64,000 nt of DNA from Candidatus Dojkabacteria bacterium (GTDB taxonomy: Bacteria; Patescibacteriota; Dojkabacteria; J137). This document shows, one piece after another, positions 8,401 to 64,000 of the stretch. Every line of letters begins with the position of its first letter. Position 1 is the stretch's first letter. The position numbers were made by a program, and so were the translations under genes. The DNA lies in the NCBI GenBank assembly GCA_030834985.1, contig JAUQWV010000003.1, positions 143,387 through 207,386 on the forward strand, written 5' to 3'. The notes below the pieces were generated by a model. It was not told the origin of the DNA. It made no database searches and saw only the letters and a list, made by a program, of their open reading frames with translations.

Positions 8401-8886
8401 AGAGAATGAATAAATAAATAAAATAATTATCCGTTAAGGATCTTAGCTTGTGACTTTTTTCAAAGTCAAGTTAAGTTTATGTTTTAGCAAGCCAAATTGT
8501 CAATCACTCTACCCTGTAATGTTTTGATTTCACATACTCTATTCATCTATAAAAATTTTTAAGTAAAGTACTTTGTGTTAAACATTACCCTATAACCATA
8601 TGGCCCTATTCTTCTTTATAGATAAGGATTTGCACTTATTAATTATCAGCTGGCTTTAATGCCAGTTTTTGGAAACATAATCTTGAGTATAGAACAGCCA
8701 TATTTTAAATAGATAAAAATTAAAGGATTTATTTGCCAGCAAGCAAATTTTCAGTTCCTATTTCCTCTAAAATTTTTTGTAAGAACTTTGTAAGAAAAAT
8801 TCTTTAAAATTTTCCTGCGGAGCGTTTTCGTGTGAAAGTATACCTATATAGTATTTTTTAAGAAACAAACTAAAATAGAGGTAGTA

Positions 8887-20858: not shown

Positions 20859-20895
20859 GGGATTATATCATATTTAAGATATATTAGTTTTACCT

Positions 20896-21729: not shown

Positions 21730-21775
21730 TGGCATTGACCAGTATTATAGCAAAAACTTATAGGCTGTCGAAGCT

Positions 21776-40553: not shown

Positions 40554-40645
40554 ATTATTATCCTTTCATCTTAATGAGCCTACCCTTATTATATCATCAG
40601 TATATATCCGTTGTCGAATAGATGTTATAAGAGTAGAATTATTAT

Positions 40646-59506: not shown

Positions 59507-60559
59507 TTAATACCTATCTTTTCGATAAATAAAGTATTCAGCTAATCTTTGAATGCTGTACATAAAGCGGTTTGGCAAATCTAGCGCTCCAACATAATCA
59601 ATTTGATAGCCGCCAAACCGCTTCTTAAAATCAGATACACCTTTCATTCCACTTTTTACATTCATGCCTTCAGGAACTACTCCCCACATATTATACTTTT
59701 CTATTCCTAATTCTTTTAGTGATTTGATTATTTCCCAATGCAGAAGGTAAGATGCGCCATATTTTTGAGCTTCTGGATCACTTAAAGAACCGCCATGTGA
59801 ATAAAAGGCCTTTTTATTAAATACGTTTATTAATGCTGCAGAAACAAATTTCTTTCCTTTTTCTCCTTTTTTATAGCATAAAAATACTTTACATAAACCT
59901 TTACTATAAAGTTGCTCAAACTGTTTAATAAAATATTCTTTACCAAAAGATGTGAATTGCTGGCGCCTAAACGTTTCGGAAAGTATTGCATAAAAATTAT
60001 TAATATCTTCTACACTTTCCGTTTGCATTACTTTAAATCCAACTTCTGAAGATTTTTTTATATTGTACCTAGCCACTTTTTTCATCTCTCTTAATAATTC
60101 ATCTTCAGATTTTGTAATATCTATTTCCCAAACATACTTAGCTTGGGTTGGAGCCATAGCTTTAACATATCCTATTTTTGTAAATGTATTAAGCAAAGAA
60201 GCTTCTGTTAATGGATCCATTCTAAAGCAGTTTAAGCTTCTTTGCTGGATAAACTCTTTTTGAAAGTTTCTAATTTCAATAAAAATATTTTCTAAATTAT
60301 TAATCTTTTTTAAATCAAGAACCGGACCATACGGTGAATATGCGTATTTAGAAATCCTACGTCTATAGATTTCAATATAGAAATTACCAATAAAGCTATC
60401 CTCATCTTTTATTAAAAAGAGTTCTGTTTCTTTGCCTAAATATTTTTGAAACTCAATCCAGTCAATAGACGTTAAAAAAGAAGCTTGGGCGTTTTTGTTT
60501 ATCTCTTCCCAAGCTTCTTTTAAAGAATCGTCGTATTTTACAAATGAAAGATTTGCCAT
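59507..60559 (-). CDS. FemAB-family tRNA-dependent aminoacyltransferase
   Basis: ASYLLHWEIIKSLKELGIEKYNMWGV....VSDFKKRFGG matches the FemX/FemAB core. Confidence 0.65.
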   Translation of the reverse strand: MANLSFVKYDDSLKEAWEEINKNAQASFLTSIDWIEFQKYLGKETELFLIKDEDSFIGNFYIEIYRRRISKYAYSPYGPVLDLKKINNLENIFIEIRNFQKEFIQQRSLNCFRMDPLTEASLLNTFTKIGYVKAMAPTQAKYVWEIDITKSEDELLREMKKVARYNIKKSSEVGFKVMQTESVEDINNFYAILSETFRRQQFTSFGKEYFIKQFEQLYSKGLCKVFLCYKKGEKGKKFVSAALINVFNKKAFYSHGGSLSDPEAQKYGASYLLHWEIIKSLKELGIEKYNMWGVVPEGMNVKSGMKGVSDFKKRFGGYQIDYVGALDLPNRFMYSIQRLAEYFIYRKDRY

Positions 60560-60571
60560 CTAATAATTTTA

Positions 60572-61723
60572 TCAGACCTCTCTTCTTAAAGGCATGAGTA
60601 TATGAACATATTTTGCATCAGCTTTATCTTTAAAGATTGATGGTGATAATGGACCCTTAGTTTCAAATTTGATTGTTTCACCCTTAATATGACTAACTAA
60701 ATCCTGAAAGAATCTTAAGTTATATGCTGAATTTAAATCACCTGAGCCGTCGGTTGCTGAAACTTCAATTTCGGTTTCATTTTCACCGACTTCAGCAACC
60801 GACGATTTAAGCTTTACCTTTGAGTTTTCAATATCAAAATCAAACAATGTCTTATTTGATAAGTTGCTTCTAGCAAATGTATTGATAACCTTAATACCTT
60901 CTTCTAAATCACTTCGTTTTACTTCAAATGTATAAACAAAAGAATCAGGCATTATTCTTTTATAATCAGGATAAGGCCCTTCTATTAATCTTAGTGTTAA
61001 TTCAACATCATCGAATTTAAAGATTATCTGAGATTTATTCTCACTTAAATAAACTTCAACTGTATCTACATCTGGATAATCTTGCAAAATCTTTACAACT
61101 TCTGACATATATCTTGCAGGAACAATTACTTGACTCGATAATAAATCTCTTTTTAAGTTTGATATTTTTGTTGTCCGTTTTGAAAGCCTAAAGCCATCTA
61201 AACCTATAAAAGAGATCTCATCGTCGTTGCCATCTTCTAATTCAAATAAAACACCTGTTTGCTGAATCTTACCAGCGCTAAAGTCTGTAGAGCATGCAAA
61301 CAAAACCTTCTCCATAGAAATTATCAATTCTGTTGCAGAGATAGAGAATATAGGATCATTAGATGCTTCAGGTAAAGGAGGAAACTCATTACTAGGAATT
61401 GTAGAGAAGTTTGCTTTTGATTTTGCAGTTTCTACTATAAGAGTGTTTTCTTTTGTAGCAATATCTACTTTTTCTGAAGAACTAGCTGCTACAAAATCTG
61501 CAATATATTTTGCAGAAACAGTTGTAGTACCTTCCTCATCTACTTTTCCAGGTATCCACATGTTAATTCCCATATCTAGATTGGTTGCTGAAAGTTTAAG
61601 GTCTGTATTAGATACTTCCAGTAATACATTGGATAAAACAGGAATGTTGGGCTTTGCACTTACTGCCCGTGATGCATATTGTAAGGACTTTGCAAGCTTT
61701 GAGTGATTTAAAGTGATTTTCAT
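60572..61723 (-). CDS. dnaN: DNA polymerase III beta subunit (sliding clamp)
   Basis: MKITLNHSKLAKSLQYASRAVSAKPNIPVLSNVLLEV start typical of DnaN. 383 aa, three-domain length. Confidence 0.9.
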   Translation of the reverse strand: MKITLNHSKLAKSLQYASRAVSAKPNIPVLSNVLLEVSNTDLKLSATNLDMGINMWIPGKVDEEGTTTVSAKYIADFVAASSSEKVDIATKENTLIVETAKSKANFSTIPSNEFPPLPEASNDPIFSISATELIISMEKVLFACSTDFSAGKIQQTGVLFELEDGNDDEISFIGLDGFRLSKRTTKISNLKRDLLSSQVIVPARYMSEVVKILQDYPDVDTVEVYLSENKSQIIFKFDDVELTLRLIEGPYPDYKRIMPDSFVYTFEVKRSDLEEGIKVINTFARSNLSNKTLFDFDIENSKVKLKSSVAEVGENETEIEVSATDGSGDLNSAYNLRFFQDLVSHIKGETIKFETKGPLSPSIFKDKADAKYVHILMPLRREV

Positions 61724-62180
61724 AATCTATTTATATTTTAATAAGTAGAAAGTGTTAGTAAATAGGCTGTGTTTATATGTGTATAACTGTGCAATAAATA
61801 TGATTATATCAGTAAAATTTTGATTTTGTATATGTGGATATTAGTTGTGGATTAATTTTAATGCAAATTCGTAAAAAGAAGATCTACAAATATTTTCTAT
61901 TAAATTACACATGTGGGCTAATTATGGGAATACTTTGCTTATTAATACCTAATATCCTTATAGGAAAAAGATTTTATTCCTGTGAGTAAGTTTACCACAC
62001 ACATACTAACTTGTTACGAGTGTATTTAGTTTCCTAAATTAGTATACTGCTAATCTGTTAAACCATTTACGTAAAGTCTTTTTAAGACATCAATATAATT
62101 TAGCAAGTAATATAGTTTAAAAACTTGAAACTTTCCTAACAAGTGCTAAGATATCTTTAAACAAATAACTTGAATAACTT
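61724..62180. promoter_or_regulatory. Putative chromosomal replication origin (oriC) with clustered DnaA-box-like 9-mers
   Basis: AT-rich. TGTGTATAA (61778-61786), TGTGGATAT (61834-61842), TGTGGATTA (61846-61854) and TGTGGGCTA (61912-61920), all in one orientation, versus the TGTGGATAA consensus. Confidence 0.4.
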
Positions 62181-62711
62181 ATGAATAATATTAATTTAGA
62201 AATATCTAGCTCTGAACTTAAATTCAGCAAAGAGATCTCTATATCAGAAGCTTTAAAAATAATCTCTTATGTTCTAAATTTATCGGATTTGGATGATGTA
62301 CAGATTCCAAAGAACCATTTAAAAGAAAATCAAGTAAGTAAGCCTGTAATAGAAGCTAAAATAAAGAGAGTTTCAACGTTTAAGAAACCTGCAAGGTCAG
62401 AGTTAAATCCGCAGATAGAAAAAATTGCATTAACAGGAACAATCTCAAATGAATATCCAACTTTTAACAAAATGGTTATTGGAGGCGATAAGATTTTATG
62501 GGTATTACTATATCTTAAAACTCATGGAATAAGTGGAGCCAGCCTAAAGGATATTGAATATGTAAGTTTGAAATTAGGCCAAGTTATTAGATCTAAGTTT
62601 TTTACAGCGCTTAATAAAAGAAATATTATTGACGGAAAAGTTGCGAATTTAAATGGCCTCTTTGTTATACAACAAAGAGGAGAGGAATATTTAAAATCAT
62701 TATTAAAATAA
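62181..62711 (+). CDS. Hypothetical protein encoded between dnaA and dnaN on the opposite strand
   Basis: 176-aa ORF with no family recognised. Convergent with dnaA. Confidence 0.4.
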   Translation: MNNINLEISSSELKFSKEISISEALKIISYVLNLSDLDDVQIPKNHLKENQVSKPVIEAKIKRVSTFKKPARSELNPQIEKIALTGTISNEYPTFNKMVIGGDKILWVLLYLKTHGISGASLKDIEYVSLKLGQVIRSKFFTALNKRNIIDGKVANLNGLFVIQQRGEEYLKSLLK

Positions 62712-62726
62712 TAAGACAAAAGGATG

Positions 62727-64000
62727 CTATTCCATTTCGTCATCAGGACTAGCGCTTTCGTTAATATTAGTAATTATCTGAGCTACTTGTCTATTAAAGC
62801 CATCTTGAAGCATCATCTTGCTTTTTACCTTATCTATTGCATGCAAGACTGTTGTGTGGTCTTCACGATTTAAAAATTTAGCAACTTCTTCTAATTTATA
62901 ATTAAATTCTTCTCTTAAAATATACATAGCCACCTGGCGAGCAAGTGCCAATTCTTTTGTTCTTCGTGGTCCTTTAAGCTCTTTAACTGTTACAGCAAAT
63001 GATTTAGCAACTTCTTTTAATACTTTTGGGACTTTGACCTTTTCTCTTTTACTTTGAGCATCTTTCCCTATTGTGTGGGCAATTTCTTCTAGTGTTAAAT
63101 CACCACTTGGCTTCATTTGGTTGTATAAAGCTACTTTTTGTAACGCACCCTCAAGCTCTCTAATATTATCGGTTACTGTTCTTGCAATAAATTCAATTAT
63201 TTGAGGTTTTAGATTAATGCCTGATGAATCAGATTTTCTTTGTAGAATTGCCAAGCGTGTTTCATAATCTGGGTTTGCTATATCAACTACCATTCCTCCA
63301 AGCATTCGAGATTTTAATCTACTTTCTAAACTTTGGATGTCTTCTGGCTTGCGGTCGGCAATAAAAATTACCTGTTTGCCTGCGTTATGAATTTCGTTAA
63401 AAGTATTAAAAAATTCATCTTGAGTTGCGACCCATTTAGAGATTAATTGAACATCGTCAATTATTAATAAATCGACCTGACGGTATTTTTGGCGGAATGC
63501 CTCCATTTGCCCAGCTTTAATTCCTTTGACCATCTCATTTAAGAATCCTTCAGAAGATATATATTTAATTTTATTTCTAGGATTTCTTTCTAATAGGGCT
63601 CTTCCAATAGACTGTGCAAGATGAGTTTTACCAACACCTGTTTTACCGTACATAAATAGTGGGTTATACATAGAGCCAGGATTATCTACTACTGCAATAG
63701 CAGCTGCATGTGCAAGCCGGTTTGAATTACCGACTATGTAATTTGAAATTGAGTACTTAGGATTCAAACCGGCTTTAGTAATCGCTTCTGTTACAACACC
63801 CATCATTCCATTTTCAACGGCTAATAAAGGAGCTTCTTCTATATTTTTTTCTGTTATATCTTCTTCAACTGCACCTTTATGATACACTTCAAAAATTGGG
63901 TTTAATGGTTCACCGTAGACATAAGTAACAGTTTCTTTTATTAATCTTTCATGTTTACTTTTAAGCCAGTCTAATGTGAATGCATTTTGTACTCCAATAA
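62727..64000 (-). CDS. dnaA: Chromosomal replication initiator DnaA (5' end outside the window)
   Basis: GKTGVGKTHL Walker A, IDDVQ Walker B, sensor/box VII regions and the C-terminal domain IV HTH. The frame stays open upstream of 63887 to the window edge. Confidence 0.93.
   Translation of the reverse strand, partial: IGVQNAFTLDWLKSKHERLIKETVTYVYGEPLNPIFEVYHKGAVEEDITEKNIEEAPLLAVENGMMGVVTEAITKAGLNPKYSISNYIVGNSNRLAHAAAIAVVDNPGSMYNPLFMYGKTGVGKTHLAQSIGRALLERNPRNKIKYISSEGFLNEMVKGIKAGQMEAFRQKYRQVDLLIIDDVQLISKWVATQDEFFNTFNEIHNAGKQVIFIADRKPEDIQSLESRLKSRMLGGMVVDIANPDYETRLAILQRKSDSSGINLKPQIIEFIARTVTDNIRELEGALQKVALYNQMKPSGDLTLEEIAHTIGKDAQSKREKVKVPKVLKEVAKSFAVTVKELKGPRRTKELALARQVAMYILREEFNYKLEEVAKFLNREDHTTVLHAIDKVKSKMMLQDGFNRQVAQIITNINESASPDDEME

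Follow-up and report, generated by a model that had tools for sequence, protein, structure and literature searches.

A candidate replication origin merged with a predicted DnaA-controlled dnaN promoter in Dojkabacteria

Among the described bacterial replication origins, the closest counterparts of the locus analyzed here are those built on a basal unwinding system (BUS), where a better DnaA box is followed by a weaker tandem box, a short GC cluster and DnaA-trios (PMC8287927, PMC6669920). Under the BUS rule, the box has up to 2 mismatches, an optional tandem box with up to 4 mismatches is located at most 3 bp away, and at least 3 in-phase DnaA-trios (3'-NAN-5') start no more than 16 bp from the better box; the first trio is 3'-GAT-5', and the distance that separates the box from the trio peaks at 10-13 bp (PMC8287927). 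The incC region of Bacillus subtilis consists of two subregions, with distal and proximal boxes, and the distal box subregion is needed (PMC6669920). A 64,000-nucleotide stretch of DNA from Candidatus Dojkabacteria bacterium (hereinafter, the window) contains a site of similar organization directly upstream of dnaN which is probably the replication origin (oriC) combined with a DnaA-regulated promoter of dnaN. This is most likely an ordinary, well-known kind of origin, and what is new is its occurrence in a little-studied lineage without a described origin; a literature search found no paper on a characterized replication origin of the Patescibacteria (the Candidate Phyla Radiation, CPR).

The site lies between dnaA and dnaN, the genes that serve as indicators of oriC. 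The dnaN gene (60572-61723, minus strand), which is located directly downstream of the origin-like module, encodes the 383-aa beta clamp of DNA polymerase III and matches all three Pfam domains, DNA_pol3_beta, _2 and _3 (E from 2.5e-27 to 3e-13). The dnaA gene (minus strand; 3' end at 62727) runs past the window end at 64000 (Pfam Bac_DnaA, 6.9e-59; Bac_DnaA_C, 1.8e-22); the full product of 474 aa could be read in the near-identical contig L001, which shows 15 differences to the window over 11.8 kb (contigs and loci are denoted here by L numbers). With the 8.7-kb extension provided by this contig, 72.7 kb were scanned for DnaA boxes and duplex stability. The spacer between dnaA and dnaN (61724-62726) spans 1003 bp. 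Its dnaN-proximal 457 bp (61724-62180) are non-coding, without any notable open reading frame (ORF), and contain 24.7% GC compared to 33.4% overall; this part is followed by ORF176 (62181-62711, plus strand), a 176-aa ORF that converges on dnaA, the stop codons of the two being 15 bp apart.

DnaA boxes were scored by the number of mismatches to the consensus TTATCCACA. Three boxes with 1 mismatch each, all on the minus strand, fall within 77 bp upstream of dnaN and form the only cluster of this kind in the 72.7 kb: box A (TAATCCACA, 61846-61854), box B (ATATCCACA, 61833-61841), which is separated from box A by 4 bp, and box C (TTATACACA, 61778-61786), proximal to a trio-like element. Under a Markov-1 model of the region, the probability of at least three same-strand boxes with no more than 1 mismatch in 457 bp is about 2e-4; for such a cluster anywhere in the 72.7 kb, it is about 0.03. 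A weak box D (ATAAACACA, 61768-61776, minus strand; 3 mismatches) follows box C after a gap of 1 nt and, together with a 'GC' dinucleotide cluster, occupies the 12-nt spacer (61766-61777, minus strand) between box C and the AT-rich stretch that extends to the dnaN start codon (61724-61765, minus strand). This stretch, a candidate DNA-unwinding element (DUE) as well as the dnaN 5' leader, opens with CTA TTT on the minus strand (3'-GAT AAA-5' on the other strand), which resembles DnaA-trios. Between boxes B and C, 21 nt from the former, there is an extended -10 element (TGATATAAT, 61803-61811, minus strand), most likely the dnaN promoter, preceded by a -35-like TATACA (61827-61832, minus strand). 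This element is the best promoter-like site of the region, with 10 of 12 positions plus the TG, and box B is located near its -35 and box C near +10 to +18. Two further boxes in the same orientation, TTACTCACA (61981-61989, minus strand; 2 mismatches) and a weak one (61912-61920, minus strand; 3 mismatches), are located farther from dnaN.

Much of the description in an earlier note on this DNA agrees with these measurements, namely, the spacer of about 1 kb with an AT-rich first 457 bp, the 176-aa ORF convergent with dnaA, and at least four box-like 9-mers in the same orientation, which turned out to be three boxes with 1 mismatch and one with 2, all on the minus strand. The distance of 12 bp given there for the two best boxes has to be corrected, the starts of the boxes being 13 bp apart and the gap 4 bp. 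A spacer of a few bp, which was taken as the baseline, and the view of a gene at the dnaA/dnaN junction as atypical do not apply to Dojkabacteria, where the spacers are usually 0.9-3 kb long and all the resolvable ones carry genes that differ between loci and are mostly encoded on the opposite strand. Likewise, the ORF does not interrupt the origin as had been suggested: the conserved module of about 135 bp (61724-61860) is dnaN-proximal, and the ORF lies between this module and dnaA.

The arrangement of these elements is highly conserved. A scan with DnaA, using one genome per species, yielded 14 Dojkabacteria loci with DnaA 55-87% identical, 10 of which include dnaN; the 200 bp upstream of dnaN were aligned for the window and 10 relatives, that is, 11 species. 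In these species, the elements follow each other in a fixed order: box A, 4 bp, box B, 21 nt, TGnTATAAT, 16 nt, box C, 12 nt, CTA, about 40 AT-rich nt and the dnaN ATG; the only exceptions to the 16-nt spacing are L018 (17 nt) and L024 (21 nt). The extended -10 motif TGnTATAAT and the CTA triplet are invariant in all 11 species, and so is the distance of exactly 12 nt between box C and CTA, with the pattern TAT..ACA...C retained; across the alignment, this spacer accommodates a second box, of degenerate sequence, as well as a GC or CC pair. Box C is kept as TTAT(A/T)CACA, 16 nt past the -10 element, in 9 of the 11 species. Box B retains an invariant CCACA at a fixed spacing, and box A is partly conserved, as xATCCAC or TTATTCAC. 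The proximal 135 bp or so are nearly identical in the window and in the two closest loci, L014 and L015, and the other 320 bp or so are poorly conserved. In this distal part (61855-62180), which contains the weak boxes, an octamer ATAAGGAT that is conserved in the alignment with L014 and L015 (about 61953-61960, minus strand) and, presumably, the ORF176 promoter, there are 6 of the 7 differences between strains that were detected in the 457-bp intergenic region.

Compared with the BUS rule, box C with 1 mismatch is followed, after a gap of 1 nt, by box D with 3 mismatches, and the first triplet, CTA, corresponds to 3'-GAT-5' at a distance that is within the range preferred in BUS. The number of in-phase triplets varies among the species, with one each in L014 and L015, three each in L021, L023 and L025 (CTA TTA CTA), and four in L020. 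Trios were also sought beside the A/B pair, where four NTN triplets start 14 nt from box B; chance alone would produce runs of this kind in DNA so rich in AT, no GAT-type array is present, and this pair was rejected as the unwinding site in favor of box C.

Strand composition in the relatives points to the same region. The raw GC skew of the window is dominated by the gene strand and uninformative, and it was replaced by the skew at third codon positions (GC3 skew), which is usable because coding-strand effects are small in the window genome. In the pooled data for ten loci, measured on the dnaA-sense strand, the GC3 skew is -0.218 in the spacer genes (195 G, 304 C), +0.128 in dnaN and +0.121 downstream. 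Upstream of dnaA, it is negative in all 8 Dojkabacteria loci that have upstream ORFs; the pooled upstream value is near zero because the only locus from outside Dojkabacteria, L027, is strongly positive. In L018, the sign flip coincides with the box cluster upstream of dnaN, and in L016, the skew stays negative across the dnaA promoter, without a flip there. The spacer genes are almost all located on the strand opposite to dnaA and would therefore be co-directional with a fork leaving a dnaN-side origin.

The association of the module with dnaN persists when the surrounding genes are rearranged: in L018 and L024, where dnaN is inverted relative to dnaA, the boxes remain with dnaN. The divergent rather than tandem orientation of the two genes in these loci fits an inversion of the dnaA segment beside the origin, and in L018, every gene after the rearrangement is co-directional with replication from the dnaN-upstream module. 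In L016, dnaN is not found within 5 kb of dnaA, and three boxes with no more than 1 mismatch are clustered within about 100 bp (8732-8823) at a distance of 2.3 kb downstream of dnaA; near these boxes, the GC3 skew stops falling and has its cumulative minimum. The origin may have been relocated in this species.

Taken together, the only box cluster in 72.7 kb, the layout shared by 11 species, the association with dnaN and the skew of the relatives support the candidate oriC of the earlier note. We propose that the 457-bp intergenic region, and above all its dnaN-proximal 135 bp or so (61724-61860), is the unwinding module of the chromosomal origin, that this module belongs to the incC type of B. 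subtilis, and that it is joined in the same DNA to a dnaN promoter under DnaA control. DnaA would bind boxes A and B, the distal tandem pair, as well as the proximal boxes C and D; each of the four faces dnaN. A DnaA-ATP oligomer would then extend from boxes C and D, across the short GC cluster, to the strand with the trio-like CTA, and the AT-rich 40 bp ahead of the dnaN start codon would open. Given that boxes B and C bracket the extended -10 promoter, DnaA occupancy would also set dnaN transcription. Under this scheme, the genes of the spacer island would be transcribed in the direction of the fork that moves from the origin to dnaA.

Several observations weigh against this scheme. There is no perfect-consensus DnaA box anywhere in the window, and the requirement for three trios fails there: owing to one extra T, CTA TTT ACT provides only two triplets in phase. 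The segments 61715-61765 and 62108-62208 are both among the dozen least stable 50-bp windows (z of 2.5-2.8), neither of them being unique in this genome with 33% GC, and the low duplex stability at 61724-61765 (z of 2.65) is equalled or beaten by several sites in the 72.7 kb. The cumulative GC3 skew of the window falls from 1 to 28 kb (by about 5 standard deviations, SD), stays level between 28 and 62 kb and climbs beyond 64 kb (by about 3 SD); its nominal minimum is at 29.9 kb, about 1 SD from the value at 60 kb, and the GC3 skew of dnaA itself is mixed. The window skew alone is compatible with an origin at 62 kb and cannot place it. In terms of the check that the earlier note had proposed, with a skew minimum located elsewhere as the refuting outcome, the plateau at 28-62 kb and the upturn at 62-64 kb do not refute the origin, but the minimum is not sharp at the site. 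The flat stretch of 34 kb between arms of opposite slope may have resulted from past rearrangements. Finally, all the conserved elements can also be read as an extended -10 promoter, operator boxes and a conserved 5' leader.

A DnaA-controlled dnaN promoter is certainly a reasonable reading of the conserved module, and the alternative that survives best is that the module is nothing but such a promoter with a conserved 5' leader, the origin being located elsewhere in the genome. On this reading, dnaN would need its own promoter in this lineage because the opposite-strand genes cut it off from dnaA transcription; the invariant TGnTATAAT with boxes at about -35 and about +10 to +18 is a classic operator geometry; and the dnaA promoter shares the design with a box inside a promoter. 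The unmet three-trio rule in the window genome, the AT-rich stretch that is not unique and the blunt skew minimum in the window would also fit this alternative. A promoter alone, however, leaves aside the change of the skew sign, which in the relatives maps to the intergenic region upstream of dnaN, the orientation of the spacer genes along a fork starting at this region, the arrays of a box, 12 nt and CTA TTA CTA that satisfy the BUS rule in four species, and the absence of a competing box cluster from the 72.7 kb. Moreover, the roles of a promoter and an origin can coexist. Thus, an exclusively regulatory module appears unlikely, and an origin combined with the dnaN promoter is the interpretation we prefer.

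Two side observations concern the same motifs. The TGnTATAAT sequence by itself occurs in the window at chance level (7 found, 6.7 expected), and three of its occurrences (20862-20870, 21744-21752 and 40588-40596, all on the minus strand) are located only 4-35 nt ahead of start codons, a hint that some mRNAs of this organism may have no leader or a very short one. A box-like GTATCCACA with 1 mismatch is present on the plus strand at 61552-61560, antisense within dnaN and 170 bp from the origin module, over the codons for MWIPG; its position is kept in most Dojkabacteria dnaN genes, probably due to the constraint on protein coding.

The other region to be considered is located on the far side of dnaA, where the divergent yidD gene is separated from the dnaA start by only 112 bp (L001 11972-12083, outside the window). 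This intergenic region contains a palindromic pair of DnaA boxes, TT(A/G)TCCACGTGGATA, with the palindrome TTATCCACGTGGATA (here in the form TTGTCCACGTGGATA) invariant in all 12 Dojkabacteria loci compared. In most of the loci, TTATCCACGTGGATA is located between the -35 TTTACA and the -10 TATATT, that is, in an autorepression layout. The 112 bp show 0 differences between strains, compared to 5-9% in the flanking genes, with a synonymous divergence of about 0.2, which, at the level of sequence comparison, indicates very strong constraint. The earlier note would have given up the origin upstream of dnaN for a stronger box cluster upstream of dnaA; in the extended sequence, this region holds only the palindromic pair and one further box-like 9-mer with 2 mismatches, TAATCCACC, and this check does not refute the proposed origin.

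That the 112-bp region is the functional origin, with the boxes upstream of dnaN being auxiliary or purely regulatory, is nevertheless an alternative for which the invariance of TTATCCACGTGGATA in 12 loci, the complete identity between strains and the additional TAATCCACC in the window genome could be invoked. Set against these are the single palindromic site between the -35 and -10 elements, where a box array together with a DUE would not fit, and the greater stability of the duplex, the best 50-bp window being at -55.8 kcal/mol compared to -49.7 kcal/mol upstream of dnaN. There is also no change of the skew sign across the counterpart of this region in L016, and the pooled genes between dnaA and dnaN keep the 'left-arm' skew. 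An origin confined to the 112 bp is accordingly quite improbable. We regard the region as the operator of dnaA and as a possible second half of a bipartite origin rather than as the unwinding site; under the mechanism outlined above, the palindromic pair would autoregulate dnaA and may act as such a second half.

The gene located between the module and dnaA, ORF176 (DOJK_01964 in one database source), is a shortened member of an uncharacterized family of double winged-helix, putative DNA-binding proteins. It shows no match in Pfam, NCBIfam or PADLOC, only an E of 0.26 in PHROGs and no match to PDB sequences at a useful E-value; a word-index homology search retrieved only ORF176 itself. An exhaustive HMMER search with ORF176 retrieved 55 cluster representatives, mostly of about 275 aa, that align via the C-terminal 110 residues. 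The full-length proteins consist of an N-terminal beta-hairpin and helix, a middle winged helix, a basic linker and a C-terminal winged helix; in ORF176, which has a winged helix-turn-helix fold, the N-terminal beta-hairpin and helix and the C-terminal winged helix flank a disordered remnant of the lost middle domain. Full-length orthologs of 275 and 276 aa are found at the same site in L014 and L015, divergent from dnaN across 440-462 bp and followed by cargo genes that include DUF5680, a 262-aa protein and others. These orthologs are about 40% identical to ORF176, in which most of the middle domain is missing due to two internal deletions, compared to 83-87% identity of DnaA and DnaN between the same genomes. 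Given the excess of synonymous substitutions between strains (7 synonymous and 2 non-synonymous changes, excluding the rearranged C-terminal tip), ORF176 is a real gene under purifying selection. Unlike the MarR and PadR winged-helix factors, ORF176 has neither a sequence-family match nor the MarR-style dimerization helices, and its family combines the N-terminal beta-hairpin and helix with two winged helices joined by a basic linker in the full-length members. Comparison of the full-length family with the RepA, RepE and pi-type WH1-WH2 Rep initiators revealed no match in sequence or fold.

Outside the genus, 9 loci of the family that amount to 8 non-redundant contexts were examined, and in every one of these, the family gene is followed, directly or nearly so, by the gene for a conserved partner that is about 250 aa long and in which the motif RNNRNxxH(L/V)G is invariant; in L010 and L011, an extra 188-aa gene is inserted between the two. 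This two-gene module, which encodes a double winged-helix protein of about 280 aa and the partner, is present in contigs of Saccharimonadia-like and other CPR bacteria (L008 6001-7630, L009 6001-7621, L012 6001-7606, L093 3510-5088, L095 380-1994, L096 2170-3751 and L010 1512-3397) and has no Pfam, PADLOC or PDB match. The likeness of the partner to HEPN/Abi_C proteins consists in the RNNRNxxH motif and one weak Pfam match, in 1 of 7 sequences (E of 0.063). The neighborhoods of the module are mutually unrelated: in one case, the module adjoins a serine recombinase and a DnaD/Rep_O-like gene, and in L009, it is located 4 kb from dnaA. The partner is not encoded in the window or its extension, and the 262-aa neighbor in L014 was rejected as its equivalent (hhalign probability of 0.1%). 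A PADLOC search with ORF176, its relatives, the partners and the L014 cargo genes found nothing; a metagenome scan with the four closest family members found no relatives, and neither did an IMG/VR scan with the Saccharimonadia-type subfamily, which thus gives no evidence of a viral family.

The earlier note had suggested that ORF176 might be an origin-associated regulator. In this case, the winged-helix protein would bind the origin region and modulate initiation or dnaN expression. The DNA-binding fold, the purifying selection, the location of ORF176 or its full-length ortholog next to the origin-like region and divergent from dnaN in three species, and the distant family member near dnaA in L009 are consistent with such a role. 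In 7 further non-redundant contexts (8 loci), however, the family gene is the first in a two-gene operon with the partner of about 250 aa, in unrelated neighborhoods, including the one next to the serine recombinase; in other Dojkabacteria, where the origin module is the same, this position of the spacer is taken by unrelated genes or is empty; and ORF176, having lost the middle domain, has diverged to about 40% identity from its positional orthologs, compared to 83-87% for DnaA and DnaN. A regulatory role is therefore very doubtful: ORF176 is probably not an origin regulator, there being no positive evidence of regulation. As judged from the comparison of loci, ORF176 is most simply explained as what is left, in reduced form, of a gene island that lies between dnaA and the origin and varies between lineages. 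That a double winged-helix protein of the mobile two-gene module was captured beside the origin in this genus and now is a lineage-specific binder of the origin or the dnaN promoter, minimized in ORF176 to the N-terminal module and the C-terminal winged helix, has little likelihood.

The DUF5680 gene is another variable part of this island. It is found by the 3' end of dnaA in the three closest relatives, L013 (2644-3111), L014 (6802-7272) and L015 (6716-7186), the L014 copy being identified by a Pfam match (2.8e-23) and those in L013 and L015 by sequence similarity, and it is missing from the window genome, which therefore has the most reduced spacer of its genus. The divergence between the contigs L001 and L097 jumps inside ORF176 (about 62190-62533 of the window), from 0.2-3% on the dnaN side, including the 457 bp, to 5-9% over the 3' part of ORF176 and on through dnaA, yidD and ftsK; this breakpoint looks like a recombination or sweep boundary beside the putative origin. 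Between the window and L001, 11 of the 15 differences are concentrated within 277 bp of dnaA (63483-63759), with spacings that are multiples of 3; these changes apparently are synonymous, which suggests a short recombination tract. An Rfam scan of 60500-64000 yielded nothing beyond one sub-threshold miRNA match, no intrinsic terminators were found in the dnaA-dnaN spacer, and no tRNA or tmRNA genes were found across the 64-kb window.

The layout of boxes, promoter, box and trio amounts to a concrete prediction, of about 135 bp, of where and how these reduced, uncultured bacteria would start replication, and lends support to a view of the Bacillus-type unwinding module as ancestral and widespread. 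The site would also provide a precise anchor for estimates of replication rates of Dojkabacteria from metagenomic coverage (peak-to-trough). The variable island and the two-gene module of the ORF176 family are secondary leads, and the interest in them is modest.

With regard to position, the module can be compared to origins that are tied to dnaN rather than to dnaA, as exemplified by the cyanobacterial oriC, which lies upstream of dnaN. Similarly, in L018 and L024, the module is attached to dnaN despite the changed orientation of dnaA; unlike in such origins, dnaA is still the next conserved gene in most Dojkabacteria. The locus also resembles bipartite origins, such as B. subtilis incAB/incC and Helicobacter pylori oriC1/oriC2 (PMC8235120), in that boxes flank dnaA and the module on the dnaN side is of the unwinding type. 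In contrast to these origins, the upstream part consists, in this case, of one palindromic box pair inside the dnaA promoter, and the two parts, whose cooperation is putative, are 2.4 kb apart, with an extra gene in between.

The closest resemblance is to the B. subtilis incC/BUS (PMC6669920, PMC8287927), which likewise is located between dnaA and dnaN, directly upstream of dnaN. Both have distal boxes (A and B here) and a proximal box in tandem with a weak one (C and D), all pointing to dnaN, followed by a short GC cluster, a first triplet 3'-GAT-5' and AT-rich DNA up to the dnaN start; the counterpart of the distal box subregion of incC is the A/B pair, which is located 55-68 bp upstream. 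The orientation and sequence of the incC boxes in this comparison are those known from the literature. Unlike incC, the Dojkabacteria module has no consensus box, the trio array is degenerate in the window genome and complete, with 3-4 trios, only in some relatives, and opposite-strand genes put 0.5-3 kb between dnaA and the module. What sets it apart from incC most visibly is the invariant extended -10 promoter between the distal and proximal boxes.

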